From positions 1-63,455 of IMG/VR virus record IMGVR_UViG_3300024974_000006: a DNA stretch of 63,455 bases, one strand, 5' to 3'. Position numbers and translations under genes: made by a program. Under the pieces are notes generated by a model. That model was not told the origin of the DNA. It did not search any database and saw only the letters and a list, made by a program, of their open reading frames with translations. This DNA is from a virus (lineage: Duplodnaviria; Caudoviricetes). Below, one piece after another: positions 3,046 through 61,421 of this stretch; positions within the stretch are counted from its first letter, which is position 1, and each line of letters begins with the position of its first letter.

Positions 3046-3891
3046 ATGAGAACACTATTTGTCCATAAAAGAAAATTTAAGAATGGAGATAAAAGGGATG
3101 GTTTAAGTGGTCTATGCTCTACAGCTCTTGCAGTAAAGCTTGAATTACCAATCTTCACTCCAAAGATACGCCCAGTCAAGGATAAATCATTTATTATTAT
3201 CAATTGGGGCCTAACTAAAATCCCTTGGTTATCTAACAACACTGGATCAAAGGTAATAAATCATCCAGACAGTATTAGAAATGCAGTTGATAAGAAGATT
3301 GCGTTCAGAATGATGAATGGAAAAGTTAATATTCCAGATTGGACTACTGATAGGAAAGTAGCTGAGAGTTGGTTTGATAAGGATGGCAAGGCAGTTGTAT
3401 TTTGTAGAACACTTTCTAAATCGTACCAAGGGAAAGGTATTGTAATAGCTACCTCCAAGGAAGAACTAGTCCAAGCCCCTTTATACACTCTTAGAGTACC
3501 TAAAAAATACGAATATAGAGTACACATCGTTAACAATAAACCTGTTCATATCCAGCAAAAGAAGAGGCTTTCAAAAGAAAAGTTAGAAGAAAGAGGTTTA
3601 AGTTTAGAGAGTAACGGGCTAGTTAGATGTTGGAATAATGGATACATCTACAGCACTAACATAGTCCTACCTGAGAAAGAAGATATTCTGAACTCTATTA
3701 TAGAACAATCAAAGAAAGCAATTGAAGCTTTAGATCTTAATTTTGGGGCTGTAGATGTGATTGCTAGTAACAAAGGCAGAATTACTGTGCTAGAAGTTAA
3801 TACAGCTCCAGGAATAGAAAACTCTACTATAGACAGATATGCTTCTGCATTTGCAGAACTGATTAAAGAGGTTGAGAATGAAGAAAAGTGA
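3046..3891 (+). CDS. ATP-grasp peptide ligase (RimK-like, phiEco32-type)
   Basis: IINWG, EYRVHI, DLNFGAVDVI and VLEVNTAPG motifs. Confidence 0.9.
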   Translation: MRTLFVHKRKFKNGDKRDGLSGLCSTALAVKLELPIFTPKIRPVKDKSFIIINWGLTKIPWLSNNTGSKVINHPDSIRNAVDKKIAFRMMNGKVNIPDWTTDRKVAESWFDKDGKAVVFCRTLSKSYQGKGIVIATSKEELVQAPLYTLRVPKKYEYRVHIVNNKPVHIQQKKRLSKEKLEERGLSLESNGLVRCWNNGYIYSTNIVLPEKEDILNSIIEQSKKAIEALDLNFGAVDVIASNKGRITVLEVNTAPGIENSTIDRYASAFAELIKEVENEEK

Positions 3892-4231
3892 GGTAGTAAA
3901 TATAGTTACTCTTATGGGTAAAGATACAAATTATTACAAAATAAAACAATCTCATATAGGAAGAGATAAACCAAGAAGCCATCCTTTATTAAATACTTAT
4001 ATTTTCACGAAAAAGGAGAGTATACTAGGTTTAAAAAAAGGAGATATACTACGATGCGATGGATACCCTTTTATGTCACGCCCTAAAAAACTTAGAGTTT
4101 TTAGGCATCCAAACACTGAACATAGAAACGGTGTTTCTCATAAACACTGGATTAACACTTATATACCTATAAAAATCGGTCAGTTAGGTACTACCGCTTT
4201 CTGGGCATTAAGAGAGGAACAACATGGATAA
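3872..4231 (+). CDS. Hypothetical protein
   Basis: ORF inside the ligase cluster; LKKGDIL..G.PF motif. Confidence 0.6.
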   Translation: MRMKKSEVVNIVTLMGKDTNYYKIKQSHIGRDKPRSHPLLNTYIFTKKESILGLKKGDILRCDGYPFMSRPKKLRVFRHPNTEHRNGVSHKHWINTYIPIKIGQLGTTAFWALREEQHG

Positions 4232-4556
4232 AAGATTAAATAACCCAAGAGTAACTGGTACGAGAAGGCACCCTATTCAGAGAGAAAAAACAGAAATATC
4301 ATTTATGGTTGTTAATGAGACTAATGAGGTGATTCATAGAGTCTCACCAAATCCGTTAGCTATGTCTCATTATGCAACCCCTCTAAGAGTTGGAGACATT
4401 ATCGCGACGTCAGGTGCGCCTTTTATACAAGAACAAGCACCTATTATCATTAACGATAATATAGTTTATAGGCCAGTAAGATTAACATCGACTAACTCAC
4501 CCACACAAAGATTTGCATTAAGGTTTGTAAATTTTGTAACGAATTCAACCAATTGA
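4224..4556 (+). CDS. Hypothetical protein
   Basis: GAGG RBS; LRVGDII..G.PF motif. Confidence 0.6.
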   Translation: MDKRLNNPRVTGTRRHPIQREKTEISFMVVNETNEVIHRVSPNPLAMSHYATPLRVGDIIATSGAPFIQEQAPIIINDNIVYRPVRLTSTNSPTQRFALRFVNFVTNSTN

Positions 4557-4563
4557 GGTCGAT

Positions 4564-5382
4564 ATGAATAAGTACTTTTTAATAGGGTCTGATCCAGAAG
4601 CATTCGTTAGAAACTCTAATGGTGAATTGGTATCAGCTATTGGGGTAGTACCCGGAACAAAACACGAACCATTCAATACAAAGAATGGTAGTGTACAGCA
4701 TGATAACATCTTAGCTGAATTTAATTCACGCCCATCTTCTTCATTAGAAGAGTTTATAGAGAATCATAAACTGATTATTCATGACCTCCAGTCAATATTA
4801 ACTCCATTAGACTTGCATTTGGATTTTATTGCATCTGCTTTAGCATCTGACGAACTACTATCAGATCCGATTAGTAGAGTAGCAGGATGTGACCCTGATT
4901 TTAATGCTTGGTTGCTTTGTCAGAACCCACCAGCAAATTATAATATAACTAATGTTAGAGCAGCTGGTGGACATTTACACTTATCATTTGATCAAGCAGA
5001 AGAAGATTTTGATCATGCTAATCGTTTGAAGTTCGTTAAAGCTATGGATTTTAATGTTGGAGTTGCCTCTGTAATATTCGATGAGGATCAACAAAGAAGA
5101 AAATACTATGGTCAAGCTGGTTCTTTTAGACCAAAAGATAAAAGTATCGGAGATCCTTATAATGGTGTAGAATATCGCACACTCTCTAACTTCTGGTTAA
5201 GATCAGAAGAGATGATGAAATGGGTATATGAGAGAGCTAAGATGGTCTATCATGACTTGGATTATATATCCTCTATAGCTGAGAGTGTTGGTGGAGAGAT
5301 CCAGCAGATCATTAATACTGGAGATAAAGATAAAGCTGAAAAGTTTTGTTATAGGATGGAGATAAATTATGACTTCGGTTGA
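4564..5382 (+). CDS. phiEco32-like COOH-NH2 ligase type 2
   Basis: IGSDPEAF, QHDNILAEFN, GCDPDFNAW, RAAGGHLH, RRKYYG.AG.FR and GVEYRTLSNFW motifs. Confidence 0.92.
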   Translation: MNKYFLIGSDPEAFVRNSNGELVSAIGVVPGTKHEPFNTKNGSVQHDNILAEFNSRPSSSLEEFIENHKLIIHDLQSILTPLDLHLDFIASALASDELLSDPISRVAGCDPDFNAWLLCQNPPANYNITNVRAAGGHLHLSFDQAEEDFDHANRLKFVKAMDFNVGVASVIFDEDQQRRKYYGQAGSFRPKDKSIGDPYNGVEYRTLSNFWLRSEEMMKWVYERAKMVYHDLDYISSIAESVGGEIQQIINTGDKDKAEKFCYRMEINYDFG

Positions 5383-6097
5383 TAGAAAATCTATCTTACA
5401 TAATACCGAACACTATATAGACGAACCCCAAGATTATGCAGTTCGTTACTCTGAGTGCTATGGCATCTATAAAGATAATGTAATAAGAGCTCATGATTTT
5501 GGTATATCGGATAGTGGGGTTTATTGTAGAATTAGAAAAATAGTTAAAAATCAAGATAATATTAATTCATTCTTAAGTGATGCTTCACATATTAAAGTTG
5601 AAGATGTAGGACTTCAATTCCCAATCCCTACTCTAGGTTTTATCAATCTTGGGACTTATGCTATCTTTCTTCAAAGAACACATCTTAAGAGAGGGAATGG
5701 TAGGTATAGAAGAGGTTTTAGGCCGGACACAATATCAGGGTTTAATCCTTTTACAAAAGAACTTAGAGCCATTGGTGAGTACGACATATTAGATGGTGAA
5801 AGAGAAAACTATATGTCAGATGAAGTGTTTATGAGAATAGCTCCTAATTTATTCTTTCCAGAGCCATTCTTATCTTTTGAGGAGGCTTTGAATGAAGTAA
5901 CATCATTTAATCGACTTGGGATAGCCTTTACTCCATCTTTAGCTATTAAGATAGATCTATTATCTAATAGGATAGTCTTATTGAAAAATTGTTGGATTAT
6001 AGGTGACTACGATTTCAAAACAAATGTATTTAATATGCGAGTAGATACATTTAATTCAGAACTGGGTCGATTAAAAGTCCCATTTAAAGAGGTTTAA
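5369..6097 (+). CDS. Hypothetical protein of the amidoligase cluster
   Basis: Lies between the two ligases; LGFIN and R.YRRG motifs. Confidence 0.7.
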   Translation: MTSVDRKSILHNTEHYIDEPQDYAVRYSECYGIYKDNVIRAHDFGISDSGVYCRIRKIVKNQDNINSFLSDASHIKVEDVGLQFPIPTLGFINLGTYAIFLQRTHLKRGNGRYRRGFRPDTISGFNPFTKELRAIGEYDILDGERENYMSDEVFMRIAPNLFFPEPFLSFEEALNEVTSFNRLGIAFTPSLAIKIDLLSNRIVLLKNCWIIGDYDFKTNVFNMRVDTFNSELGRLKVPFKEV

Positions 6098-6098
6098 T

Positions 6099-7496
6099 AT
6101 GTCAAACATAGCAGAAGCTTTCGGATATAAATCTGATGATAAGCTATACAGAACTACTTCTGAGCTAGTGACCTCTGATCATGGGATAGGGGTTGAGGTT
6201 GAGATAGAAAATGTGATTTACGATTGGCAAAGAGATGCTCCAGATATTCCTAAAGCAGTGTACTTTAGGCATAGTAATCAAAACGAGCTTCCTAATTTAT
6301 CCAAATATTGGAATATCGTAAAAGACGGATCATTAAGAAAAGGTGTTGAGTTTATCTTTAGGGAAGCTTATAAAGGGGCTAATATTACAGAAGCTTTAGC
6401 AACAATGAATAGCTTCCTAAGCATCTACAGACATAATGGATTACCACCAATAGCATCAGATAGATGCTCAATCCATGTACATTTAGATGCTAGAGACATG
6501 GATGAATATCAGCTGAATAATATTTTATTAATTTATATTTTGATTGAACGAATTCTATTTAAACATGTTAATCCGTTAAGAGTAAAGAATAATTATTGCC
6601 GACCATTATCTGACTCAGCATTCATATATGTACTGAATGATTTAAAAAGAGTAGCTTTATCAAAGCAGATTTCTGATCTTCCAAACATTATCTCAAACTC
6701 TTGTGATAAGTATTCAGCATTAAACATAAGACCTTTAATTAAATATGGGTCTATTGAGTTTAGACACCATCAAGGGACTACTGATATGTCCCAAGTAAAG
6801 GACTGGATTAATATAATCCTTACTCTAAAATGTCTAGCTATGTCTACAGACATTAAAGATATTTTAGCAATTTATGAGAAGAAGCCAATTAGAGTATTAA
6901 CTGATTTATTTGGTCAAACTGTTCTTGCTGAGCCTACTTTTATAGATAGTTTTGAATGGGAATTGGAACTAGCAAGAGGTTATAATGATGTTAAAGAGAT
7001 ATTTGATTTTGATAACCTTGATAAAGCCTCGAAATTAAAGTACTCTAAAAAGAAGACGAATGAAAAAACTTTAATTGCTAGATACATTGAAAAGAATAAT
7101 ATAACAGTACCTGAAGTTAATAAGTCAACTAAACAAAGTCCTACAGAAGAAATTAATAATGAGCCTAGCACTACTATTGATGCACAAGGAGATGCCTCTG
7201 TAAGAATTAGAATGATGAGTGTTGCGGATAGATCAACACCTTCTGACTACAGCCAATTTTCTGGTAGAGCAACTGGGTTACGTCCTACTCTTACAGACAA
7301 TCTATCTTGGGACTCTATGCCCCCAGGGATGGAAGCTTTGTTGAGGGTTTCTACAAATACGACTGAAACTTCTGAAGAAGTACCAAGGATAGTTAACTTA
7401 AGTTCTTATCAGATTGGCGTCTTATCGCCACGAATTCAAGAACAAATTTATTTACTAAGAACTTTATTCAATCAACCAAGACCCCAGGAACAATAA
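6099..7496 (+). CDS. Putative amidoligase (COOH-NH2 ligase fold) with a low-complexity C-terminal tail
   Basis: GIGVEVEIE, KDGSLR.GVEF, RCSIHVHLD, KYSALN and GSIEFRH motifs. Confidence 0.9.
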   Translation: MSNIAEAFGYKSDDKLYRTTSELVTSDHGIGVEVEIENVIYDWQRDAPDIPKAVYFRHSNQNELPNLSKYWNIVKDGSLRKGVEFIFREAYKGANITEALATMNSFLSIYRHNGLPPIASDRCSIHVHLDARDMDEYQLNNILLIYILIERILFKHVNPLRVKNNYCRPLSDSAFIYVLNDLKRVALSKQISDLPNIISNSCDKYSALNIRPLIKYGSIEFRHHQGTTDMSQVKDWINIILTLKCLAMSTDIKDILAIYEKKPIRVLTDLFGQTVLAEPTFIDSFEWELELARGYNDVKEIFDFDNLDKASKLKYSKKKTNEKTLIARYIEKNNITVPEVNKSTKQSPTEEINNEPSTTIDAQGDASVRIRMMSVADRSTPSDYSQFSGRATGLRPTLTDNLSWDSMPPGMEALLRVSTNTTETSEEVPRIVNLSSYQIGVLSPRIQEQIYLLRTLFNQPRPQEQ

Positions 7497-7497
7497 G

Positions 7498-8721
7498 ATG
7501 TGTGGACATGTAGGATTTGTAAATCGTGGTAATGGATATTTAGCAGACTATGATACTTGGTTTAAACAAGCTTTATATTGTGGGGCTTTGAGAGGAGTGC
7601 ATGGGACCGGCATAGTTGGAGTATCTTCACTAAACCAGATGTCAATGTATAAAAGGGCATTAGCTGCTTCTGACTTTCTAGAACTAGCGGCTACTAAAAA
7701 GATTATTACTGGAACTAATAAAGCTTTGCTAGGTCATAATAGATATGCTACACAAGGCGGCGTATCTTGTGAGAACTCTCATCCATTTAAAGTCGAGCAT
7801 ATTACCCTTCTCCATAATGGTACTTTAACTTCTCATAGATCATTAGCAGGAGGCAATACATTCACTGTTGATAGCGAAGCATTAGCGGCTCATTTGGCTG
7901 TGAGTGAAACATACAAAGAAGCATTAGAGGAAGTTGATGGAGCGTATGCTTTAGTTTGGCATAACGCTAACAATGACACAATTAACTTTGCTAGGAATGA
8001 TGATAGAGCATTATACCTAGGGTTTCACTATGGTAAAGATGGAGATATTAAAACTGGACAGACTATCTTCTATGCCAGTGAAAAAGGTATGTTAGAATGG
8101 TTGTGTGCAAGAAATAATATTAAATTAGAAAGAGTGGCTCTTTTAAAACCAGGAGTTGTATTAACAGTACCATTAGATATAAAAGAGGAAATATCTGATT
8201 CTACATTTACTCCAAAGGAACCAAAAGCTTATGACTACTATCAGACTGGTGGTTATTATGGTAGAGGGGGCACAAATGGAAAAAAGCCAGAAAGCGAGCA
8301 ATCGTCTCCAAGAACAAACATAGTAAAAAGAAATAACTCTTATCCAACATTAAAAAAGTATTCATATTTATTAGGAGTAAAATCTCTTCAATTAAAAATA
8401 ACAGCATTTAAACCATATCAAGCATCAGGCGGCTATGGAGTGCTTTGTGGAATCTATAATAATGATCTTGAAATTCAAATTGGTGGACAGACTAAACAAG
8501 ATATGGATTCTTATTTAGGTAAGATGGTAAAGGTGACCCTTACATCAATGCACTCTGATGAGGTAGCATCAGGAAGGATACTAGGGCTAGCAGACGAGCT
8601 ACCAGATGATAATGAAGAAGATTATGAGGATTATGGTGGTGGTACTGTAGTACAATTTGAAAAAAAAAAGTCTACTGCTCTAATTGTGACGAAGAGGTTA
8701 TTTCAGAGAAACCATTTATAG
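7498..8721 (+). CDS. Class II (Ntn) glutamine amidotransferase; probably extends to 8783 through a -1 shift
   Basis: N-terminal MCG nucleophile; RG.HGTG, GHNRYAT, HNGTL and VDSE motifs. Confidence 0.92.
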   Translation: MCGHVGFVNRGNGYLADYDTWFKQALYCGALRGVHGTGIVGVSSLNQMSMYKRALAASDFLELAATKKIITGTNKALLGHNRYATQGGVSCENSHPFKVEHITLLHNGTLTSHRSLAGGNTFTVDSEALAAHLAVSETYKEALEEVDGAYALVWHNANNDTINFARNDDRALYLGFHYGKDGDIKTGQTIFYASEKGMLEWLCARNNIKLERVALLKPGVVLTVPLDIKEEISDSTFTPKEPKAYDYYQTGGYYGRGGTNGKKPESEQSSPRTNIVKRNNSYPTLKKYSYLLGVKSLQLKITAFKPYQASGGYGVLCGIYNNDLEIQIGGQTKQDMDSYLGKMVKVTLTSMHSDEVASGRILGLADELPDDNEEDYEDYGGGTVVQFEKKKSTALIVTKRLFQRNHL

Positions 8722-8783
8722 CAATTGATAATAAACCTTATTGCAACTATTGCGTTGCCTCATTTCCAGAGAGTATATATTAA
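8661..8783 (+). other. -1 frame extension encoding a CxxC...CxxC zinc finger
   Basis: KKKVYCSNCDEEVISEKPFIAIDNKPYCNYCVASFPESIY*; no start codon of its own; ends 3 nt before the next ATG. Confidence 0.75.
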
Positions 8784-8786
8784 ATT

Positions 8787-9755
8787 ATGAGAATTGTAAA
8801 ATTAGAACTTCCAACAAGTAGAGTAAATGACCACACTTCTATAGATATTAGTAATGCCCCTGCATTTGCTTTATTAAAAATGAAGGAGGATGATACATTC
8901 CTAGAATTAAATTACCCATCTTTATGTAGAGATTTTGTTGGGCCAGCTTGTGTATGTGCTCACAAAAAGGTAAGGAATATATTTTCAAATATGATTCTAG
9001 AAGAAGATCTATTGACTGATACAAACCAAACGTCCATCTCTATCTCTATTAACCCAGATGGAATGAATCATTTATTAAATAACATCAGAATATTGCATGA
9101 GTTTGAACAACATCTCGGTATAAAACTAACTGAAGTCTGTAGTACTAACGAATTAGATAGATTCGGCAGGGCTCATTTAGTTATCATAGGTGATAAATTT
9201 TGGATAAAGGCTCCATTAGCAATCTCATTCTATACTTTTTTCTTAAGATGTTTAACATATTTCGAGTATCATAAGAATATAGGTACTATAGAGAGTGCGT
9301 TTAAATACCTATCGTCAAAAGGCTCTGATAACGTAGATTCTAATTATGCCAAAAAGATTATATCAAATATAGATGTAAGATTATTATTTGGTAATTTAGA
9401 TAGAGTTTTAGGAGATAATCCTTTCACTGGTTTAAATGATAAGGTAATTCTTAAAGATACTTCTTGGATTGAAGATAAAACAAAGAGCTATCCAGATATT
9501 TTAGAAGGAGTTTACAAAAGCTCTTACTTTAATAACAAATATCAGTTTAGAATGAGTAGCCTCTATTCTCAATCAGGGCTAGTCACCTTCTCAGACTGTC
9601 TATTTTTAGTACATCAAGAACGGCAGCACTATATAGGAGTTTCGAATCTTGGTTTAGATTGGGTCTCCAACTATATTGATTTAGCTGTAGAGAATAAAGT
9701 TTTAACCCTTAAAAGAAACCCTACTAATGGTCTTCAGTCATTTGAAGCAAACTAG
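8787..9755 (+). CDS. Hypothetical protein, paralog A
   Basis: CRDFVG, FYTFFLRCL, NLDRVLGDNPFTG and GLDWVSNYIDLA motifs shared with the next ORF. Confidence 0.8.
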   Translation: MRIVKLELPTSRVNDHTSIDISNAPAFALLKMKEDDTFLELNYPSLCRDFVGPACVCAHKKVRNIFSNMILEEDLLTDTNQTSISISINPDGMNHLLNNIRILHEFEQHLGIKLTEVCSTNELDRFGRAHLVIIGDKFWIKAPLAISFYTFFLRCLTYFEYHKNIGTIESAFKYLSSKGSDNVDSNYAKKIISNIDVRLLFGNLDRVLGDNPFTGLNDKVILKDTSWIEDKTKSYPDILEGVYKSSYFNNKYQFRMSSLYSQSGLVTFSDCLFLVHQERQHYIGVSNLGLDWVSNYIDLAVENKVLTLKRNPTNGLQSFEAN

Positions 9756-9774: not shown

Positions 9775-10797
9775 TTGAGAATAACCAAAATGAATGAAAA
9801 AGTAAATTTAGTAATAGTAGATTATGGCAATAGTTATGGTAGACCACTTTCAACTCAAGCCCCTTTATTCTCTATCCTTCGCAAAGTAGTAGAGTTTGAC
9901 AAGAAAGAAGTCTACTATGAATTAGCACTAGAGTCTAAGTGTAGAGATTTTGTCGGTAGTACTTGTTTAGCTTCTAATCTAAGATTTCATAATCCTTTAA
10001 ATACTAACGATAAAAATAGAATTGCTTCTATTGATGAAGCGCTTGTCTCTATATCAATAAATGCCCTTCATTCAGATTTACCAAAGTCTAGAATAGGCAT
10101 TTTAAATGATATAGAGAGAGAGATGGGTATCACTCCTACAACTGTCCATGAAACCAATGTTAAAATTGGAATTAATGGTAGGAAAAAGTTAGTATTTATC
10201 GGAGATAGCTTATGGATGAAGTCTCCACATGCAATATCTATCTACACTTTCCTAATAAGATGTTTGTGCTATCCATCTGATAAATCAATAACAACTATTG
10301 AAGAATTATTCAATATGATTTTAATAGAGTATACAAACTCTAATGATGCTTCTTTCATATTCAGATTTCTACCTTATATCGATATTAGATTCTATCTAAT
10401 TAACTTAGATAGAATATTAGGTAAGAACCCATTAACAGGTATGAATGATGAAGAGTTAACTAACACAGTTTTTAGTATAGAAAGTAGCTCTTTTGGACAA
10501 TATTCTATGGACCATCAAAGTACTTATTCTAACAAGTATATTAGAACTAATTATAGATTCTCTTTGAATGTAACGCATCCTCAATCAGGAATAGTTCATA
10601 TAACATACTTATTAACCCTTATAGAAAAAGGCACTTTTATGTCAGATATGTCTGAGTCTTGCATGGGCTTAGATTGGGTTTCCAATTATATTGATTTAGC
10701 TATAGAGAAAGGGATTTTCAAATCAGTTAAAGTAGATGAAAAAGAGTCATTTAAAAGAATCACTAAGACATGGGAGAATAATGACAGAAAAAAATAA
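9775..10797 (+). CDS. Hypothetical protein, paralog B
   Basis: CRDFVG, IYTFLIRCL, NLDRILGKNPLTG and GLDWVSNYIDLA motifs. Confidence 0.8.
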   Translation: MRITKMNEKVNLVIVDYGNSYGRPLSTQAPLFSILRKVVEFDKKEVYYELALESKCRDFVGSTCLASNLRFHNPLNTNDKNRIASIDEALVSISINALHSDLPKSRIGILNDIEREMGITPTTVHETNVKIGINGRKKLVFIGDSLWMKSPHAISIYTFLIRCLCYPSDKSITTIEELFNMILIEYTNSNDASFIFRFLPYIDIRFYLINLDRILGKNPLTGMNDEELTNTVFSIESSSFGQYSMDHQSTYSNKYIRTNYRFSLNVTHPQSGIVHITYLLTLIEKGTFMSDMSESCMGLDWVSNYIDLAIEKGIFKSVKVDEKESFKRITKTWENNDRKK

Positions 10798-15292: not shown

Positions 15293-16645
15293 ATGGCACA
15301 TATTAAATGGGATGAGGCGCTAGCATTAGAGAGAGATGTAGCTATTATCTGCCAAGCTCAGGAAGAGCATGGTATATACTTTGACTTAGACAAAGCTTAT
15401 AGATTAATAGATGAATTAGAAACTCTAAAAGAGGAGAGGTATAATGAGATAAGAGAGTTTCTAAACTTTGAAATAATAAAAGAAGAAACAAAAATTCTAT
15501 TAGAAAACTCATGGAATTATGTTAAGAAAATTAAACTTAAAAATGGTAACTATGTCGAATCAGTTCTTTCTAGGTATAGTGATCCTTCTATCGTTGTTGG
15601 GCCATTCAGTAGGATCAGAATTGATGAGCCATCGATTAGTAAGAGACAGTCTATTGTACAGCAGCTTCTTAAACTCGGCTGGAAACCAAAGGAGTTTACC
15701 GAGAAGGGGTTCCCACAATTAACAGTTAAGGGAGAACCAGTAGATACATTAGAAGAAGTTGGACCTTTTGGTAAAGCTTTATCTGATTGGTATGTTTACA
15801 ATCATAGACAATCCCAGGTAACTGGATTTCTTCCTCATGTTCGTAATGACCATAGAATAGCTGCACAGATAGATACTTGTGCAACCAACACTTATAGAGG
15901 GGTTCATAGGGTAGTAGCTAATATCCCTAGGCCATCTTCTGTATTTGGGAAGGAGATGAGAAGTTTATTTACCGTCCCTCCTAATAAAGTGTTTGTTGGA
16001 GCCGATGTATCTGGCTTAGAGTTAAGAATGTTGGCTCATCATATGAATGATCCTAATTATATTGATCAAATATTAAATGGAGATATTCATACTTATAACA
16101 TGAATATGGGACAACCCTATTTAACTGATAGGGATTTAGCTAAAACATTCATCTACATGTTTATATATGGAGGCGGCGATGAGAAAGCAGGTAGAGTAAT
16201 AAATAGCACTGCTAAAGATGGAAAACGTCTTAAAGACACCTTCTTGGAGGGAATTCCAGCATTAGCTAATCTAATTGCTAAATGTAAGAGATTCTCAGAG
16301 AAACATGGATACATCCCTTCAATCGATAATAGAAAGATCTATATCCGTACTTTTGAAGGAAGGGTATTAGTTCATACAGCCCTTAATGCTAAGTTACAAA
16401 CAGATGGAAGTATTGTAACTAAGAGGGCTATGGCTATAACCAACTATGAAATAAAAAGAAGAGGGTTAAATGCTAATCAAATACTATTCTATCATGATGA
16501 GTATGCTTATGAATCTGATCCAGATTGTGCAGAGGAGGTAGGTGAGATTATGGTCGATTCTATGAGATTAGCTGGTGAATACTATAGACTAAGAATTCCA
16601 ATAACTGGAAAGTATGCTATTGGTAGAGATTGGGGAGTTCATTAA
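15293..16645 (+). CDS. DNA polymerase A, polymerase domain (T7-like, Tyr at the 762-equivalent position)
   Basis: Motif A ADVSGLELR, motif B RDLAKTFIYMFIYG, motif C YHDE. Confidence 0.95.
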   Translation: MAHIKWDEALALERDVAIICQAQEEHGIYFDLDKAYRLIDELETLKEERYNEIREFLNFEIIKEETKILLENSWNYVKKIKLKNGNYVESVLSRYSDPSIVVGPFSRIRIDEPSISKRQSIVQQLLKLGWKPKEFTEKGFPQLTVKGEPVDTLEEVGPFGKALSDWYVYNHRQSQVTGFLPHVRNDHRIAAQIDTCATNTYRGVHRVVANIPRPSSVFGKEMRSLFTVPPNKVFVGADVSGLELRMLAHHMNDPNYIDQILNGDIHTYNMNMGQPYLTDRDLAKTFIYMFIYGGGDEKAGRVINSTAKDGKRLKDTFLEGIPALANLIAKCKRFSEKHGYIPSIDNRKIYIRTFEGRVLVHTALNAKLQTDGSIVTKRAMAITNYEIKRRGLNANQILFYHDEYAYESDPDCAEEVGEIMVDSMRLAGEYYRLRIPITGKYAIGRDWGVH

Positions 16646-29324: not shown

Positions 29325-32300
29325 TTAAAATTCTTCTTGCATTTGAGTTCTAATTAACTTAGATCTACTGTTAATATCTCTTAGTTTAGAAGCTCTGTCT
29401 TCAAATGATAAATTACGATCATGCACTACCTTACTTCTTAAAGTAGCCACTTCCTGTAATCTCTTCTGATAATATTTCTTTCTATTGTAATCCCCAGATT
29501 CACTCACACCAATAGCACCAAATCCAGTAATACCGGCTAATACCTGTCCAGGAGTAGATTTAATATCACCAAACCTATCTTTAGGTGGGGTATTAGTAAC
29601 AAAAGTATCAACCATCTTGCTAGCCCATCCATGGGATGAAAGCCAAGCAGGAGTCATAATGTTCATAGAAAACAACATCAATTCAGAGAGTTGTTGACTT
29701 CCAGAAGCTCCAGGGGTCATAATGTTCTTTCCAGTAAAACTATCCTTACCATTTAGCATTGCTGCAACAGCAGTAGGGGTAGGACCACCTAAGAATCCAA
29801 ACTCATTAAATACTGTGCCTACTGATTGAACACCAGTAGAAATAGGTGATTCCATCCCATCTTCTACATAATTCTCATGAACTTTTCTAGCAGCAGTTAC
29901 ATACTGACTCCAAGGAATCAGATAATCTAATGGTAGTATTTGAGGACGATTAGAACTATCTTTGAAAGGTAAGAAAGCAGTACCTGCATTATGTCTATAA
30001 TAATCTGGTAATCTTCTTTTAAACTTTCTAATATCTTCATCGTCCCAATCATTAGCCATTTGAGAGATCATAGTAAGTAAAGCCGGAAGAGTAGCATACT
30101 GAGCAAACTTTAATGGATGTTTAATCATAGCTCTTATAGCAGCTGGACCAGCCTTATAAGTAAAAGTTAAGAAAGGAGCACCAAAAGGTATCCTTCTCAA
30201 AGTCCTTACCCAACTATGTACTTGGGTATAATCGAATAAAGTTTCATTAGCATGATTAGCCGCTTTAGTCAATAGAACTTGCTTATGATTATTATCTAGA
30301 TCATCTAACTTCTTATTATTTTGAGTTTCCCAAGTTTGAATATAATCTCTAAAAGCAACTGTTTTAAATGTGCCTTCAAGAAATGCAAACATCTTGGAAG
30401 TAGTAGCACTAGTTTTATGACCAGCCATTTTTAACATAGCCATAACTCTTTCATCAGTAAAATGAAGAATATCATCTAAACTAGTAGATTTTCTTTGAGC
30501 ATAAGCAGCTTGAGCAGCTTCTAATTCATCACCATATTGACTATAAATATCTTGCAGTTCTACGGCACTAAAAGTAGTACCAAATAATCCATAATCATTA
30601 GCCATCTTCCAGTAACTACTTTGCTGTCCATTTTTAGCTTTAATTAACTCATCAGTGAGCATCCCAATCAATTTAACTTTAGATGTGCTAGTACCTAGAT
30701 CTAACAGTGCAAAATTACCAAAGAAGTTTCTAACCCAACTAGCAGGATTCAACCCTACCATGCTAAGTTTCCAAAATCTATTAACTCTTTCTAGAGTACC
30801 ATTAGGAGCAAAGAATTTCTCAATGTTATCCTTATGTGCAGTATTATAAGGTGCTACAAATGACTCCAAATCATTAGCCACTTCCTTTCGTACATATTTA
30901 CCAGATAGAGCACCCATTTGTTTGTTCTTAGGGAGCCTAACATAGTTATCCTTTAAGAAAGCATCTTTATCATCAGAGGTTGTCTGTCCTATTTGTAGAG
31001 CATGTTCATGAGCATCAGTAATAATCTTATCTTCTATCTTCCTAATATCTTCTTCCAATTTTACTGTACTTTCTTTAAAAGCGTCGATAGATACTTTAGA
31101 ATTACTAAAGAAATTATTTTGATCTTCTTTATTTAACTCATTAATAATATATAAATTTTGTTCTAATTGCTCATACGCCTTATCTATACTTAGTCTATGT
31201 CCACTATATTTTATTTCAGCGTTATTAGTTAGTACCCAATAAGTACTATCTGTTTTAGACACTTTATTAATGGTATTAAACATCTCTAATAATAAGTGGT
31301 CTCTAGCCATAACTCCATAAGTCTCAGCGACTAAGAATCTAACATCCTTTATCTGTCCTAAAGCTAGCTTATCTAGTTCACTTCTCTCCTTCTTCTTTTT
31401 CATCCAAGAGAGGGCAGAAGGTCTTTTACCTGATCCTCTATAAGCTTTAACAAACTTTAAATATTGGACATGTAAGTAAGCATCTTCATTCTTCTCAAAC
31501 ACATTCTTATCTATTGCACCTAGATCGGATAGATACTTTCCTGTTTCTCTAATTGCAGTTTTAGCTTTAAGAATAACTTTCTTTTGGATGGCAGTTACAG
31601 GTAAGTCATCTACTTTAGCACCTTTAGTAATAAAATACTCTAACACCGCTTGGTTTTGTAATGGATCTAAGCCTTTTAAAGCATGGGAGAGGGCAGTAGT
31701 AGCCTCTTCTATATTAGCAATCTTACCTTTGGTAATATTAGCAATACCAGAATAAGCTTCTTCATATTGCATATCCCCGAAGACTCTCATAGATTTTAAG
31801 ATAGGAGTATGTTTAAGAGTATTATTAAACTTCTTATATGCCCTAGTAAATACATTATCTGATAATTCACCAAATCCACTTAAGAACACAGACCCAAAAG
31901 CTTTCTCATCTTCTAATAGACTATAAGGAGAGTATTGATGAATAATCTGTTCTGGAGGTAATTGAGTGTCACCAATAGAGTAAGATTGATTTCCATCCCT
32001 AACATCACTATTAACTTCAGCACTCTCATTAGCAACAGTTGGAATCTTACCAAAAGGTTTATCTGAGAACCATTGTTCTGCTGGATTAATAGTATCAAAG
32101 ATACGATCAGTGGATTCAGCTATAGCACTTTCTAAATCTTCTCTAGTAAGAGTATCAAAACTATTACCATAATACCTTTTTAATAAGTGTTTAATCTTAC
32201 TAATAATATTATTTAACCAGTTCTCTCTATTCCTTCTAAGGTCAGTCCTTTTAGGACTTGATTTATCACCTAATCCAACTCTATTCTTAATAAACGTAGT

Positions 32301-35300
32301 ATCACTAATAAACTTAGCTTTTGCTAACTCAGCCATGTATTCATCAGCTAATTTGAGGGCTACACTTAGAGGTATAACCTTTTTTATTGCTTTACCATTA
32401 GTATCTACAGAATTAAATACTACTTTCTGATGAGAAGGGAGGTTATTAACTCTATCTATATAAGCCTGTTTCTTTTGAGTAGAGTTCATATTAGCAAAGC
32501 CGTCAATATTAACAGCCATCCATGAGTATAGATAGGAGTCCCACCCAGTCATAGTAGCCATAATATCATCTTTTAGTTTACCACCATCCTTGTTATTAAG
32601 CATGGATAATAAAAACTCATCGTACTTATTCTCAATAATTAAGTTACCATCCCTGTCCATTACCTCAACATCAAATAAAGCTCTAACACCATAATGACCA
32701 ACTAGCTCATGAGCAATAGTCCCAACCATATTCATAGGATTAGGGAATCTAGCACCATTGATATAAATATGAGTAGTGCCATCAGCTAACTTCTTATGTA
32801 CACCATTAGCATACATTAGATCTGTAGAATGAGCGATAGGAGTCTTAGACCAATCTTTAGTAGCAAAATCTTCTACATATTCAAATGTTAATCCATTACC
32901 TAATAAAATTTGATTCAACCCATTTTTGATTTTAGTAAATATATCAAAGTTGGCAGCATGATTAATAACTATTTTAGTAGGCTTTCTCCAAGCATCCTTA
33001 TCAGAAATATCTAGTCTTAAAGTCTGAACTTCACCTTCACTATCTACTTCATCCCTAGTCTCCATGTCTGAGGCTCTAATTCTTGTTTTAACTACGTCCT
33101 TCCTTTCAACAACAACTATAGCATCTCGTCTAGAAGCTAATACTCCTCTCTCTAATCTAAGCTCATTTAATAGTTCTTTATCAGGATCAGCAGCTCCTTT
33201 TTCATAAGCAATCTGTTTGTCTATAGCATCTATAGATGCTAATAGATTAGCATATTCCTCATCTTGTTCTGGAGTTAATTCTGTAGAAGCTTCTTTAGCT
33301 TTATTAGTAGCTTTATTAATCTCATTAATAATTGCTTGATCTATAATAGAATCATCTACTACAGTCTCCTCATCACTAACTAAGTCATCTAGTACTTTTG
33401 GAACATACTCAGTAGAGTCTTCTTCTACATCATTAATAACTGTCTGAGGAGGAAGGTTTTCTTCAAATACTTCTTTAGCTACTTCTATATCAACTTGATC
33501 TTCTACATTATCTATAGCAACTAATGCTTCATTAATAGTATTATTTTTCTTTATTACATCTTTAACTTCTAAGACTTTAGCAGGTAGATTGATAATAGAT
33601 TTAATAGGGATAGATACTGTCTTATACCCTTTGCTTCCATTAGCGTTGGTATACTCTATCATGACATCAGCTTTCTGAGCTTGTTTAGATGGAGTTTTTA
33701 CTACTACTGCCTTAATAGATTTTTGTTCTTCTGGAGTTAGTTTATTAGTTAAAATACTAAGTCCATAAGGATCATTTTCAGTTGGTAGATTAGAAGCATC
33801 AAAAGTTATCTCTTGTTGTTTAACTAAGTTATGAGTGGGCTCTTTAACTACCTTCTTTGCTTTAGGAGCAGCTTTCTTTTCAGGTGTAACTTTAGTTGTA
33901 GGAACTTTAGTTTTTAAATGGGCTTCTAATTCAGCTTCTAACTTTACAATCTCAGCAGCTCTATCCCTAAATCCATGTGTATCCTCACCAGCTTTCTTTT
34001 GATCAGCCATAGCTCTAAGCTCTTGAGTCTTAGTAGCTATTTGATCTCTTAGTTCTTTTGTCTTCCTGTCTTTTTCAATCTTCCCATTTTCTGATCCGCT
34101 TGTACGAACTCCTCCGCTACTTCCTGTGGTATCTTTACTTTCTTGGCGAACTTGGGATTGTGTGCTGCCGCTAACATTAGTCGTTGTTGGGCCTTTGATC
34201 TTGTTGGCATTTTGTTTCTGTGCCTCATCTATCTTATTTTGAATATAATCTGTAGCCTCTAAAGAATTAGAGATAGAAGAAGCCTCAATTACTATTTTTT
34301 GAGCCTCTACTTTAGATAAATCGCCATCTTTAACAGCGGCATCTAATTCATCTTTAGTAGACTGCATGTATCCTTTAACATCAGATCTTCTAGAATCTCT
34401 TGCATCTCTCTTTTGTAATTCAGGAATTAAATCATTATACTCTTTATTTTGATTAGTAAAATGTTCTATATTAGATTTTAATTCTTCTACATATTGTTTA
34501 GAATTCTTATCTGTGCTTCCTTCAAATAAAGATAATTCTGCTTTAAGACCCTCTAATTCTCTAGTATTCTTAGATATTTTTTCTTGTACTAACGCTTCTC
34601 TAGTTTTAGTTTTAAAGAGAGTACCCTGAATATTTATAGGTGCTTTTCTATTCTCTATAGATTCTATTTCTTCTAGTAAAGAATTATTTTCTACTTTAGT
34701 AGATTTCTCTGTAGATTTCTCTTTTTGAGAAGGTATAACTTCTGTAGGTACTGCTTCTTTTGATTTAGGTTTATCAGTTAAAAGATTAACTGGAGCTAAA
34801 CCACTAACTTGCTTACCATTCTTTTGATAAGTAAAATCAGCGGTGCCATCTGGATTAATAGAAGTAATATTAACTTCACCAAATCTAGGATGATAAGCTA
34901 TGGTTGGTTCTTTAATAGCTTCAGGGGCTTTAGGAACCTCTGGGGTAGCTTCAGGGGCTTTAGGAACCTCTTGGATAGCTTCAGGGGCTTTAGGAACCTC
35001 TGGGGTAGCTTCAGGGGCTTTAGGAACCTCTGGGATAGCTTCAGGGGCTTTAGGAACCTCTGGGGTAGCTTCAGGGGCTTTAGGAACCTCTGGGGTAGCT
35101 TTAGAAGAAGTAGCCTTAAGCTCTTCTTCAGGTGTTAACTTATTATCAGAAGCAACACTACTATCAGCACTCTCCTGTCCAACTTTAACTGCGTTATTCT
35201 TTTCTTCTTGTAAAGATTTAGAAATAGCTTCAGTCCTTGCTCTACTTTCATGGGCAGAGGTAATATCCTTAATAGCTTGTTCAGCTTCCTGTTTAATAAT

Positions 35301-36578
35301 TGGATCTACAGGTTTATCTTTCTTAGGAAGAGTAAGATTTCTTAAATTAGAGAGGGTAGCATTATAAACTTTAGAATAATTTTCATCTTCATTATTGATA
35401 CTTCTAGCAAAGCTATCAGCATATTTATTATATACTTTTGAAACTGTAGGATTAGAAATAGAGGATTGATCAGAGAACTTATCAATCTTTTTATTCTCTT
35501 CTCCAGGCTTAACAGGCTGTCCAGTAAATGGATGAGTGACTCCAGCCATACCACCACCCATTACACCACCTACAATACCTCCTTCTACCAATGCATTTAA
35601 TGCACCTTCATGAATATCTTTAGTAGGGTCAACATAATCTTTAATAGCTTTATTAGAAATTAATTGCTCACCATAAGATTGTGGCATTTCTTGAGCAGCT
35701 TCTTTAGCAGCATCCTTGCCTATAGCTTTAAATACATTCCTGGTAATCTTACCAGCGCCACCACCTACCAACGTGCCAATAGCACCACCACCAGTAAGTA
35801 ATCCAATACCCCCAGTACTAATAGATGTATCAGTGAATACATCATTAGCAGCCTTATCAGCTAAGATACCTTTAGCTAACTCTTCTCTTTGAGGAAGTGG
35901 TAGGGTAGGATCAATCTCCGAGAGGGTTTGATGAAATAAAGGATTCTTCCTATAAACTTCAATAGGAGTATTAAGAGCCTCTTGTCTAGTTTGATTAGCA
36001 TTCTCTGCACCAGCGACTACCCCCTCAGCCATACTAGCGCCTAAAGCACCACCTACTCCCAGCTCCTTTACAATCTTAGAAGCATTAGCTAATTTAGTTA
36101 AACCTCCAGCAGGAGCAATAGTAGCTAAAATATCTGGAGCACTGGCAGCCAATCTATGAGCTAGGGTAGTAGCTGTAAAATCTCCAGTATAGTTACCATC
36201 TTTATCAAATAATTGTTTAGCAGCTTCTTCCTTGAAAGATGGAGAAGTAGATTCAACTAACTTCTTAGCTGATTCAGCGCCTTTAATTTGTTCTCTAGTA
36301 GCTGTATCATCAGGGATTAATCCTAGTTTTCTACCTACTTCAATAGTAGCTCCACCAAGGTTAACAGTACTAGCTAAGAAGGTTTTTCTTAAATTTCCTG
36401 TTAATCCTGGTTCATCTTCAGAGGGCGCTTTTTGGAGATACTCAGAGAAATAATCCCTAGAAGGAGTTGTTCCTAGTTGTTTCTTTTGGGGACTTGTTCT
36501 CCTACCTACAGTAGGTAAAGGAGAAGACTCATAAGAATCACCACCATAACCCTCTAAATTTCCTAAGTAATTCGCCAT
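29325..36578 (-). CDS. Large internal virion/ejection protein (polyvalent-protein-like) with a zincin motif
   Basis: 2417 aa; last gene of the structural arm; Gly/Ala-rich N-terminus; AHELVGHYG; C-terminal region resembling LPD38. Confidence 0.7.
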   Translation of the reverse strand: MANYLGNLEGYGGDSYESSPLPTVGRRTSPQKKQLGTTPSRDYFSEYLQKAPSEDEPGLTGNLRKTFLASTVNLGGATIEVGRKLGLIPDDTATREQIKGAESAKKLVESTSPSFKEEAAKQLFDKDGNYTGDFTATTLAHRLAASAPDILATIAPAGGLTKLANASKIVKELGVGGALGASMAEGVVAGAENANQTRQEALNTPIEVYRKNPLFHQTLSEIDPTLPLPQREELAKGILADKAANDVFTDTSISTGGIGLLTGGGAIGTLVGGGAGKITRNVFKAIGKDAAKEAAQEMPQSYGEQLISNKAIKDYVDPTKDIHEGALNALVEGGIVGGVMGGGMAGVTHPFTGQPVKPGEENKKIDKFSDQSSISNPTVSKVYNKYADSFARSINNEDENYSKVYNATLSNLRNLTLPKKDKPVDPIIKQEAEQAIKDITSAHESRARTEAISKSLQEEKNNAVKVGQESADSSVASDNKLTPEEELKATSSKATPEVPKAPEATPEVPKAPEAIPEVPKAPEATPEVPKAPEAIQEVPKAPEATPEVPKAPEAIKEPTIAYHPRFGEVNITSINPDGTADFTYQKNGKQVSGLAPVNLLTDKPKSKEAVPTEVIPSQKEKSTEKSTKVENNSLLEEIESIENRKAPINIQGTLFKTKTREALVQEKISKNTRELEGLKAELSLFEGSTDKNSKQYVEELKSNIEHFTNQNKEYNDLIPELQKRDARDSRRSDVKGYMQSTKDELDAAVKDGDLSKVEAQKIVIEASSISNSLEATDYIQNKIDEAQKQNANKIKGPTTTNVSGSTQSQVRQESKDTTGSSGGVRTSGSENGKIEKDRKTKELRDQIATKTQELRAMADQKKAGEDTHGFRDRAAEIVKLEAELEAHLKTKVPTTKVTPEKKAAPKAKKVVKEPTHNLVKQQEITFDASNLPTENDPYGLSILTNKLTPEEQKSIKAVVVKTPSKQAQKADVMIEYTNANGSKGYKTVSIPIKSIINLPAKVLEVKDVIKKNNTINEALVAIDNVEDQVDIEVAKEVFEENLPPQTVINDVEEDSTEYVPKVLDDLVSDEETVVDDSIIDQAIINEINKATNKAKEASTELTPEQDEEYANLLASIDAIDKQIAYEKGAADPDKELLNELRLERGVLASRRDAIVVVERKDVVKTRIRASDMETRDEVDSEGEVQTLRLDISDKDAWRKPTKIVINHAANFDIFTKIKNGLNQILLGNGLTFEYVEDFATKDWSKTPIAHSTDLMYANGVHKKLADGTTHIYINGARFPNPMNMVGTIAHELVGHYGVRALFDVEVMDRDGNLIIENKYDEFLLSMLNNKDGGKLKDDIMATMTGWDSYLYSWMAVNIDGFANMNSTQKKQAYIDRVNNLPSHQKVVFNSVDTNGKAIKKVIPLSVALKLADEYMAELAKAKFISDTTFIKNRVGLGDKSSPKRTDLRRNRENWLNNIISKIKHLLKRYYGNSFDTLTREDLESAIAESTDRIFDTINPAEQWFSDKPFGKIPTVANESAEVNSDVRDGNQSYSIGDTQLPPEQIIHQYSPYSLLEDEKAFGSVFLSGFGELSDNVFTRAYKKFNNTLKHTPILKSMRVFGDMQYEEAYSGIANITKGKIANIEEATTALSHALKGLDPLQNQAVLEYFITKGAKVDDLPVTAIQKKVILKAKTAIRETGKYLSDLGAIDKNVFEKNEDAYLHVQYLKFVKAYRGSGKRPSALSWMKKKKERSELDKLALGQIKDVRFLVAETYGVMARDHLLLEMFNTINKVSKTDSTYWVLTNNAEIKYSGHRLSIDKAYEQLEQNLYIINELNKEDQNNFFSNSKVSIDAFKESTVKLEEDIRKIEDKIITDAHEHALQIGQTTSDDKDAFLKDNYVRLPKNKQMGALSGKYVRKEVANDLESFVAPYNTAHKDNIEKFFAPNGTLERVNRFWKLSMVGLNPASWVRNFFGNFALLDLGTSTSKVKLIGMLTDELIKAKNGQQSSYWKMANDYGLFGTTFSAVELQDIYSQYGDELEAAQAAYAQRKSTSLDDILHFTDERVMAMLKMAGHKTSATTSKMFAFLEGTFKTVAFRDYIQTWETQNNKKLDDLDNNHKQVLLTKAANHANETLFDYTQVHSWVRTLRRIPFGAPFLTFTYKAGPAAIRAMIKHPLKFAQYATLPALLTMISQMANDWDDEDIRKFKRRLPDYYRHNAGTAFLPFKDSSNRPQILPLDYLIPWSQYVTAARKVHENYVEDGMESPISTGVQSVGTVFNEFGFLGGPTPTAVAAMLNGKDSFTGKNIMTPGASGSQQLSELMLFSMNIMTPAWLSSHGWASKMVDTFVTNTPPKDRFGDIKSTPGQVLAGITGFGAIGVSESGDYNRKKYYQKRLQEVATLRSKVVHDRNLSFEDRASKLRDINSRSKLIRTQMQEEF
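34916..35102. repeat. 30-bp tandem repeat, six copies, encoding A(T/I)PEVPKAPE
   Basis: Unit tagcttcaggggctttaggaacctctgggg. Confidence 0.97.
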
Positions 36579-59370: not shown

Positions 59371-59883
59371 CTAATTATATTCAATTATTTCAACCATATC
59401 CTCTAAATCTAAGGATGATAATTCTACTTCTTCTTTAATTTCAATTTGATCTATATCTCCTTGAGTAACTTGGATCTTAGACCCAGAGGGAGCATAGTGG
59501 ATAATGTTAAATGTATGATTTTCAGTTTCTTTCTTATCAGTAAATATTCCTAGATGTTTACCTAGGACAGTTAAAGCTGCTATTCGAGCAGAGTGAGAAG
59601 AAGTTCTATCTTCTCTAATAGCCTCCTTATACATCTTCTCAATGATAATTTCAGGTTTTAATTCAAGAGCTTCAGTTCTTTCTTGGAGTGCTGATTGAAT
59701 ATGGAATTGAATGTTAGTTCTACGAGAATAAGGATTATCCTCTTTAGGATGTTTTATCTCTGGGACTACTTGAGAATGAGCATAGGAGTGAGATAGTTTA
59801 GAAAGATACGCTCTTACATACAATTTTTCTACTGGGTCTAATCTAGGAGTTTTTAATTCTAATATTTCTTCATTGTTTTCCAT
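59371..59883 (-). CDS. terS: Terminase small subunit
   Basis: ARIAAL..LGKHLG.F motif. Confidence 0.7.
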   Translation of the reverse strand: MENNEEILELKTPRLDPVEKLYVRAYLSKLSHSYAHSQVVPEIKHPKEDNPYSRRTNIQFHIQSALQERTEALELKPEIIIEKMYKEAIREDRTSSHSARIAALTVLGKHLGIFTDKKETENHTFNIIHYAPSGSKIQVTQGDIDQIEIKEEVELSSLDLEDMVEIIEYN

Positions 59884-60147
59884 TTATTTTTTACCAGCTC
59901 TCTTATTACGAGGATAAGATCTGTTAGCACTTTTAGATTTTACTCTAAGGTTAGATGAAGAGTTATTATTAGCGTTGGTATCAGCATGATCTACATCTAA
60001 CCCATCTCCTAATCTTACTTTCCCCTTTTTCATTAAGGAGTATCTAGCCCTGCCTCTACTTGCTCTTTTCTTTTTCTGAGAAGGGGCAGCATGATAATTA
60101 GCATACTCCTGAGCATAATCTCTTTTATAGTTTGGAGATGATGGCAT
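59884..60147 (-). CDS. HNH endonuclease (packaging-associated type)
   Basis: RDY..EY, GDGLDVDH...N....NLRV...ANRS. Confidence 0.8.
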   Translation of the reverse strand: MPSSPNYKRDYAQEYANYHAAPSQKKKRASRGRARYSLMKKGKVRLGDGLDVDHADTNANNNSSSNLRVKSKSANRSYPRNKRAGKK

Positions 60148-60560
60148 TATGGTGCTTCCTTTACTTGTTTATTGTTATTTGGAGAAGATGCTGGATCAGC
60201 AAATAATCTTACTGCTTGATAGACCATTTTAGCTCTAAGGGGCAGCATACCATCTTTTAGACAAATAGTTACTAGAATCTTATCTGCCATTTCTCTATGA
60301 ATATGATGGTCTAAGTGAGACTCTCTCATTAATTGATAGAGAGCATCATGAACTAGACTCCCCCTCATGAAAGAAGGGGTATCAATAGTTGGACCTGAAG
60401 GACCATCCCAAGCATATCCTTTGAATATGATTAATCTTCCATCTTCATATAAATTAATGAAGGGAGTAGTAATAGCTTCATGGGGATAGATAGGAATCTT
60501 AATGGAGTAGTCTTCATTTAATTGATATTTATAACCATCTTTAAATCTTATTTTATCCAT
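60147..60560 (-). CDS. DUF1353-like protein
   Basis: GYAWDG, SLVHDALYQ, AD and Y.AVR.F motifs. Confidence 0.8.
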   Translation of the reverse strand: MDKIRFKDGYKYQLNEDYSIKIPIYPHEAITTPFINLYEDGRLIIFKGYAWDGPSGPTIDTPSFMRGSLVHDALYQLMRESHLDHHIHREMADKILVTICLKDGMLPLRAKMVYQAVRLFADPASSPNNNKQVKEAP

Positions 60561-60922: not shown

Positions 60923-61024
60923 ATTTATATTTGTATTTCTGGAAAGTAGGTGTAGTGGGCATGTGGGTCATACGATTTATATTTGTATTTCTGGAAAGTA
61001 GGTGTAGTGGGTATGAGGGTCATA
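60923..61024. repeat. Two tandem ~50-bp copies with a 52-bp period
   Basis: atttatatttgtatttctggaaagtaggtgtagtgggYatgWgggtcata at 60923 and 60975. Confidence 0.95.
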
Positions 61025-61417: not shown

Positions 61418-61421
61418 TTAG

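Follow-up and report, generated by a model that had tools for sequence, protein, structure and literature searches.

Is a run of ten adenines near the 3' end of a phage glutamine amidotransferase gene a programmed recoding site, from which one gene yields two proteins, or a frameshift lesion that leaks? The question is raised by IMG/VR virus record IMGVR_UViG_3300024974_000006 (Duplodnaviria; Caudoviricetes), a complete genome of 63,455 bp with 34% G+C that was analysed at its full length (the window). Its predicted glutamine amidotransferase (GATase) gene (7498-8721, + strand) ends in frame 0 in a short tail, and the -1 frame behind a run of ten A (A10, 8660-8669) encodes a cysteine-rich segment. 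An earlier note had taken this segment for a hidden zinc finger and had proposed a device that makes two purposeful isoforms. Here we describe evidence that the segment corresponds to the C-terminal zinc ribbon that most homologs carry in frame, and that A10 is probably real. With about even confidence, we favour a real one-base frameshift in a lysine-linker homopolymer, tolerated as a leaky lesion and not selected as a recoding signal.

Reading frames at the A10 run

A10 is the longest single-base run of the genome. Frame 0 reads it as TTT GAA AAA AAA AAG TCT (F387 E388 K389-391 S392; junction ...FEKKK-STALIVTK) and continues into a 16-residue tail, STALIVTKRLFQRNHL, that matches nothing in the GATase family and ends at TAG 8719-8721. 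The -1 frame segment 8661-8783 (+) reads KKKVYCSNCDEEVISEKPFIAIDNKPYCNYCVASFPESIY, that is, three lysines followed by a 37-residue CxxC-x19-CxxC zinc ribbon (written as KKK-VYCSNCDEEVISEKPFIAIDNKPYCNYCVASFPESIY) and TAA at 8781-8783. Upstream, this frame is shut by TGA 8658-8660, and no ATG, GTG or TTG lies between that codon and the first Cys codon (8676), so the zinc module is left without an independent translation start; independent translation of the ribbon was ruled out on these two grounds, and the open reading frame (ORF) list contained no ORF of at least 30 residues in the -1 frame. The change of frame is confined to 8661-8675, and only two events can join ribbon and body, a shift of the ribosome to -1 or the gain of one A in the mRNA. 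Joining residues 1-391 to the -1 segment gives a 428-residue protein (...FEKKK-VYCSNC...ESIY; slippage junction ...FEKKK-VYCSNCDEEVISEK). The heptamer A_AAA_AAG (8664-8670) stands in phase with frame 0 (P-site AAA 8665-8667, A-site AAG 8668-8670).

The packing of the genes agrees with the ribbon as the real C-terminus, because the -1 stop leaves a gap of 3 nucleotides (nt) before the next ATG (8787), like the other junctions of the operon (5382/5369, an overlap; 6097/6099; 7496/7498); the GATase genes of relatives end in TAATG or near the start of the next gene. The frame-0 stop precedes that ATG by 65 nt, and this apparent intergenic gap (8722-8786) is created only by the premature stop. What the earlier note had read off the site (the A10 coordinates, the frame-0 tail, the TGA at 8658, the -1 stop at 8783, its distance of 3 nt to the ATG and the position of a Shine-Dalgarno (SD)-like sequence) was confirmed in full, together with its statements that the -1 frame has no start of its own and is reachable only by a -1 ribosomal shift or an extra A.

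The zinc ribbon as the usual C-terminus of the family

The frame-0 ORF comprises an N-terminal nucleophile (Ntn) body (residues 1 to about 230), a linker, a beta-rich middle domain, an acidic linker with Gly and Lys, and the 16-residue out-of-frame tail. The 407-residue protein matched PF13522 (GATase_6) at 51 bits (cut-off 27; E 1.9e-13); its N-terminus, MCGHVG, places the catalytic Cys straight after the initiator Met, and this C2 is invariant across an alignment of 20 sequences. The Ntn fold was assessed on an AlphaFold2 model of a homolog and not of the window protein itself (P0010, 413 residues, 37% identical; mean predicted local distance difference test score (pLDDT) 87). In that model an Ntn glutaminase (1-231) and a beta-rich part (273-344) are followed by a helix, then by disorder at 362-372 and last by a small module at the terminus (pLDDT about 70-80), and Foldseek returned the glutaminase domains of GlmS and PurF as its top matches (E 7e-13), with the glutaminase domain alone being matched. 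On these grounds the window protein is assigned by homology to the class-II (Ntn) glutamine amidotransferase family.

The C-termini of the family were compared by seeking the motif in the last 90 residues of 119 listed homologs, the window's own cluster being excluded. CxxC...CxxC was found in 68 and CxxC...H..C in 25, so that the ribbon is in frame in 93 of the listed homologs; neither form was found in the other 26. The consensus tail of the 20-sequence alignment is GCxxCxxxI...W...G...CxDC. A profile of the 68 four-Cys tails was run against 1442 stop-to-stop pieces of at least 20 residues from all six frames of the window, and the -1 piece 8661-8780 ranked first (E 4.3e-5; next piece 0.058). 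Furthermore, with a profile of 19 full-length homologs (444 positions), frame-0 residues 1-368 aligned to positions 1-352 and the -1 piece to positions 401-440, which shows body and ribbon to be collinear across a variable linker. The family ribbon was defined as CxxC-(x8-45)-CxxC at the extreme C-terminus with a match to the tail profile, and the -1 frame has both properties; what distinguishes the window gene is that ribbon and body are not encoded in the same frame, as they are in the family. Taken together, homology indicates that the -1 frame encodes a genuine zinc-binding module of this GATase, the ancestral or normal C-terminus of the family.

The -1 peptide matched the Pfam LIM profile below threshold (E 0.0021; 18.7 bits, cut-off 22.9), which marks a Cys-rich zinc module and nothing more specific; when 38 family members were scanned against Pfam, their tails received no domain name, and the module is unnamed in all profile libraries used. 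Among 74 related viral loci the motif was in frame in 31, and in all seven relatives inspected it was in frame with its stop at or near the start of the next gene. Of the zinc-less members, L008-L012, for example, have no motif in any frame near the end, and the 26 listed homologs without it show that a zinc-less enzyme is a viable architecture. The zinc finger is thus a real module of the GATase, as had been proposed; it is hidden in the window gene and not in the family.

The A10 run in further assemblies

A miscounted homopolymer would produce the same arrangement of frames, and the earlier note had named A11 or A8 as the signs of an assembly error. Over the whole of 8300-9000, the Logan DNA contigs of X3 (depth 16.6) and X5 (depth 10.2) are free of gaps and show one single-nucleotide polymorphism (8381 A>T, corresponding to the K295I variant P0001), and an RNA-library contig of X15 (8645-8795, 151 nt, depth 3.2) also has 0 gaps and shows A10. 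No difference in run length, as a phase-variable tract would give, was seen between the window, X3, X5 and X15. The 90% cluster contains two sequences only, both of 407 residues, on 6 and 7 contigs (13 entries from JGI/IMG, Logan and MetaClust), and no near-identical form of about 428 residues was found among the 223-713-residue proteins searched. A10 is therefore probably real and not an assembly slip, on the evidence of contigs, which drop minority variants, from runs that share one year and habitat and may represent one campaign. At least 55% of the words sampled from the phage occur in 14 runs, and X15-X18 and X20 are metatranscriptomes. The contig of X16 and one further contig of X15, both from RNA libraries, end before the run, with 8554-8644 uncovered.

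Tests for programmed recoding signals

The heptamer was offered by the earlier note as evidence of recoding; it is present and in phase, but its phase carries no independent weight, since the loss of one A from GAA AAA AAA AAA GTC (A11, E-K-K-K-V) gives GAA AAA AAA AAG TCT automatically. No 3' stimulatory structure was predicted in folds of 8671-8730, 8671-8760 and 8671-8790 (z -0.08, -0.37 and -0.11; 75-90 of 200 shuffles equal), pseudoknots not being part of the search. A hairpin that encloses the run (8635-8646 with 8669-8680, -13.7 kcal/mol) was not significant (z -0.99; 38 of 200 shuffles equal). The SD-like GGTGGTGGT (8635-8643) consists of three frame-0 Gly codons of the linker, is without a GGAGG core and ends 20 nt 5' of the heptamer; the SD-like element of dnaX is spaced about 10 nt upstream of its heptamer.

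Conservation was examined in several collections. In the 90 nt that precede the motif, homopolymers do not exceed length 6 in any of the 31 viral loci that have it in frame, and the closest non-self homolog (40% identical) is in frame. A blastn search of 7498-8790 against phage records gave no match, nor did a pattern scan of viral and metagenome contigs that allowed any 7-13 bases between the flanking sequences of A10 and that may omit the record of the window and records very close to it; a search of metagenome contigs for related loci by protein gave 52 pattern matches, none of them a relative. No relative between 40% and 99% identity was obtained in the collections searched. The only other out-of-frame case among the related viral loci is L006, in which the zinc domain (CAWC...HRDVC type) lies in the +1 frame behind A8 (L006:3560-3800). 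Its 99% identical counterpart L007 (L007:3150-3800) has A7 and is in frame at that spot, and C5 in place of the C4 of L006 about 430 nt upstream breaks the frame earlier. The two sequences, which represent a distant family member, differ by 4 gaps in 1.6 kb, at least 2 of them at homopolymers, and these differences are probably sequencing or assembly indels and not a conserved signal.

Of the four dnaX-type features tested, the window site thus lacks three (3' structure, 5' SD and conservation) and has one, the heptamer in phase. A10 does exceed the length of about 9 A or T inside an ORF that is given for slippage (PMC5009743), and it sits at the frame junction, but nothing marks it as programmed. 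The comparison of homologs proposed in the earlier note showed the CxxC...CxxC tail to be commonly in frame and gave no conserved slippery site. Homologs in frame without a slippery run, the result named there as contrary to a programmed device for two purposeful isoforms, are largely what the family presents, and that part of the proposal is not supported.

Run statistics and codon usage

By composition alone A10 is not beyond chance, as 59 of 100 dinucleotide-preserving shuffles of the genome contain A10 or T10. The genome is nevertheless depleted in long A-runs, among which A10 is exceptional: it has 19 runs of length 6, four of length 7 (4033, 10788, 23856 and 47657) and a single one of 10, lengths 8 and 9 being absent, and it has 4 A8/T8 matches where 11.2 would be expected, a T8 lying at 24324. 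The coincidence of A10 with the point at which the frame changes from one homologous segment to the next does go beyond chance. Although 67% of Lys codons are AAA, Lys-Lys pairs are encoded as AAG-AAA (33), AAA-AAA (14), AAA-AAG (14) and AAG-AAG (12); each of the other three runs of at least three lysines is interrupted by AAG. In-phase A_AAA_AAG occurs four times in 17,533 codons of ORFs of at least 100 residues, three of these being in the GATase gene (8280-8286, 8352-8358 and the focal site) and the fourth at 32385 on the - strand. A shift at either of the upstream heptamers, 8280 and 8352, would lead to a short -1 dead end.

A proposed leaky homopolymer frameshift and its alternatives

The leaky lesion that we favour starts from what is observed: A10 itself, which recurs across assemblies, the reading frames around it, and a ribbon that is homologous to the family tail and collinear with the body. 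Members of the family normally have an Ntn glutaminase followed by a beta-rich middle domain, and a flexible linker that leads to a four-Cys zinc ribbon at the C-terminus; the window gene has A10 in this linker at the place where A11 (or A8) would hold the ribbon in frame. Standard decoding then gives the 407-residue zinc-less enzyme, presumably as the major product, and the same 428-residue product could arise in two ways, by the addition of a non-templated A by RNA polymerase at A10 and/or by a -1 slip of the ribosome on A_AAA_AAG; ribosome sliding on poly(A) (PMC4363877) may contribute further. From the run of ten A and the heptamer, a minor fraction of full-length 428-residue protein is to be expected, and on mechanistic grounds two products are likely; slippage in this host, the ratio of the products and the need for either of them are what we infer.

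Work in other systems bears on how far this expectation can be taken. Bacterial RNA polymerase slips efficiently in vivo on a run of 9 A or T, and of the heptamers in E. coli A_AAA_AAG shifts most readily, a property that depends on a single tRNA-Lys, as in about half of bacteria (PMC5009743); the background given in the earlier note on dnaX and on runs of at least nine A agrees with this source. A tRNA scan of the window found none, so the phage supplies no tRNA-Lys of its own. In Citrobacter rodentium, tssM1 contains an A11 that yields transcripts with 10-15 A and about 20% full-length protein, no SD or hairpin being nearby, and both length variants and their ratio are required (PMC4256274). 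In green fluorescent protein reporters with runs of up to 8, the rescue of poly(A) frameshifts was poor with E. coli RNA polymerase and strong with T7 RNA polymerase (PMC6260861).

Accident is favoured over selection by the homopolymer indels of L006 and L007 together with the want of conservation and of a stimulator at A10. Several points weigh on the other side. Since the genome avoids A-runs, an ancestral in-frame A11 or A8 is unexpected, and a selected slippery run would explain the tract better. A long homopolymer should revert often, yet A10 is found in every assembly and in both haplotypes (K295 and I295), so that the out-of-frame state seems stable. The -1 tail is undecayed in its four Cys, its family residues and the placement of its stop, as would be expected if the lesion were very recent or if selection kept the tail translated. 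No slippage was seen in the contigs, from which minority variants are dropped; and the weak poly(A) insertion rescue by E. coli RNA polymerase on runs of up to 8 (PMC6260861) means that the yield in the host could be small.

Among the alternatives, the one that survives best, though we regard it as unlikely, is that A10 is kept because the phage needs a zinc-less and a zinc-ribbon GATase at a set ratio, made by transcriptional slippage and/or -1 frameshifting as in dnaX and tssM1. It would account for the only long run in a run-avoiding genome, for the stability of A10 over independent assemblies and two haplotypes, and for an intact -1 tail whose stop still lies 3 nt before the next ATG; it also has precedents in the shift-prone nature of the heptamer in E. 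coli (PMC5009743) and in the requirement of tssM1 for both length variants and their ratio (PMC4256274). This stability is weakly sampled, however, as the samples may come from one campaign and one population. No relative has the site, the best non-self homolog, at 40%, being in frame and 0 of the 31 in-frame loci having a run above 6; moreover, no 3' structure is predicted, GGTGGTGGT is weak, distant at 20 nt and explained by its coding role, the phase of the heptamer is automatic, and the in-phase A_AAA_AAG at 8280 and 8352 would cause a loss of product in a host in which bare heptamers shift very readily. Rather unlikely, in our judgement, is the fuller form of this idea, in which the recoding site would give a fixed mix of free zinc-less and ribbon-tethered glutaminase, the ribbon would dock the ammonia donor on a partner from the amidoligase/ATP-grasp cassette, and the ratio would set the coupling of the glutaminase to the ligases.

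It is also conceivable, and to us improbable, that the frameshift simply removed the ribbon, the -1 ORF being a recent remnant without meaningful expression and the phage living with a zinc-less GATase. Zinc-less homologs are indeed common (26 of the 119 listed, with L008-L012 as examples), no assembly contains an in-frame allele, and the weak rescue by E. coli RNA polymerase in poly(A) reporters (PMC6260861) points the same way. The tail, however, shows no decay at all, and A10 exceeds the length reported for efficient slippage (PMC5009743; about 20% at the A11 of tssM1), which makes zero expression unlikely. Quite improbable, finally, is a true A11, or an A10/A11 mixture from replication slippage in a phase-variable tract, reported as A10 by the assemblers: indels from sequencing and assembly classically arise at homopolymers, such indels are seen in this gene family in L006 and L007, contigs hide minority variants and the samples may be one campaign, but A10 recurs without a gap in one RNA-library contig and in two DNA assemblies besides the window, the 13 contig entries from several sources are all exactly 407 residues long, no 428-residue form is on record, and neither a second broken gene nor a further homopolymer indel was apparent in the window, whose ORF map is dense (translation table 11).

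Cassette and genome context

The GATase gene belongs to a tightly packed + strand operon, which encodes a RimK-like ATP-grasp protein (3046-3891; phrog_2599, E 6.1e-55), a COOH-NH2 ligase type 2 of the phiEco32 type (4564-5382; PF14395, E 1.3e-8), a 242-residue ORF without assigned function from the ORF list (5369-6097), an Amidoligase_2 protein (6099-7496; PF12224, E 6.6e-13) and the 407-residue GATase_6 class-II glutamine amidotransferase (7498-8721; PF13522). Sequence comparison identifies 3046-8721 as the known phage amidoligase/GATase/ATP-grasp cassette. Gene set and order are as in the cassettes of phiEco32, LUZ24-like and OM43 phages, and the window GATase is a homolog of the GATases of these cassettes, a Vibrio phage 'nucleophile aminohydrolase' being among the matches. 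The cassette is listed in the gene table of LUZ24-like phages (PMC3890496) and is present in OM43 phages (PMC10580990); peptide or cell-wall modification has been predicted for it (Iyer et al. 2009, as cited in PMC10580990), its function being so far a prediction only. The portions of the cassette literature examined (PMC10580990 and PMC3890496) make no mention of a C-terminal zinc ribbon or of a frameshifted copy.

Just 3' of the GATase gene lie two tandem paralogs, the first of 322 residues (8787-9755, +; no family assigned) and the second at 9775-10797; they are 34% identical over 292 residues (E 1e-50), share the motifs CRDFVG and GLDWVSNYIDLA, and have no Pfam or PHROG match. They may be members of the cassette.

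Elsewhere, the genome encodes the phage replication genes primase-helicase, DNA polymerase, RNA ligase, exonuclease, ThyA and ribonucleotide reductase. The DNA polymerase ORF (15293-16645, 450 residues) matches only positions 831-1231 of a 1445-position profile, which implies that the N-terminal exonuclease part is encoded elsewhere or absent; LUZ24-like phages are noted to have split polymerases (PMC3890496). A search of the genome for a T7-type RNA polymerase (PF00940) gave no match, the control genomes being silent too. In a 2417-residue ORF (29325-36578, - strand), only residues 109-551 gave a weak match (E 3.8e-15), to the N-terminal portion of a 'virion RNA polymerase' PHROG of the N4 type, and an endolysin-like match overlaps this one. 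About 2.6 kb at 59883-62543 is poor in ORFs and contains a 52-nt tandem direct repeat (60904-61007, 88% identity), short repeats of 21-24 nt, C6..C6 at 60700-60714 and C8 at 61064-61071; it might serve as an origin or as a promoter or terminal region.

Implications for annotation and function

The locus is best annotated as a GATase with a frameshifted C-terminal zinc ribbon (7498-8783, slippage at 8660-8669), not as a 407-residue protein followed by a 65-nt spacer. For the widespread phage GATase family of the phiEco32/LUZ24-like cassette, the comparison indicates that the protein usually ends in a small tethered zinc module (93 of 119 listed homologs), which offers a handle for finding the partner or substrate of the GATase. 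The site is furthermore a natural test case in which a homopolymer both makes a phage lesion and would partly heal it. If both forms were necessary, the tssM1 type of two length variants by slippage would be extended to phage auxiliary genes; if not, the case would be one of ordinary leaky frameshifting. Should A10 prove to be a selected recoding site, it would be, as far as the literature was searched, the first recoding event described in the cassette and a phage counterpart of tssM1. In that literature, no description of a frameshifted GATase or of its zinc tail was found.

Comparison with known systems

The closest parallel is tssM1 of Citrobacter rodentium, and likewise tssM of Yersinia pseudotuberculosis, in which, as in the window gene, a long A-run (A11 in tssM1, A10 in the window) precedes a C-terminal domain that is out of frame (PMC4256274). 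Both tssM1 and the window gene have no SD or stem-loop nearby and have relatives in frame, and both combine a short major with a full-length minor product (about 20% in tssM1, predicted here). The two differ in that slippage in tssM1 was demonstrated by mass spectrometry of cDNA and both forms are needed, whereas for the window gene slippage is predicted. They differ also in gene, in organism (the window phage comes from an uncultured freshwater sediment community) and in direction, as the window gene needs one extra A or a -1 shift. E. coli dnaX shares the same in-phase heptamer and the same logic of two products with a common N-terminus. There, however, the shift leads to a near-immediate stop and the shorter gamma, while in the window it would lengthen the protein; the 5' SD and 3' stem-loop of dnaX are absent or misplaced at the window site, which is not conserved in the window's relatives. 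In dnaX of T. thermophilus, a homopolymer of at least nine in the coding region (a run of nine) gives a heterogeneous mRNA pool and two protein lengths (PMC5009743), as the run of the window would be expected to do; the DNA frame encodes the long form there and slippage gives the short one, at about 1:1, whereas the DNA frame of the window encodes the short form. The window site is accordingly predicted to work like tssM1 and like the class of frameshifting termed 'compensatory' in the Atkins review.

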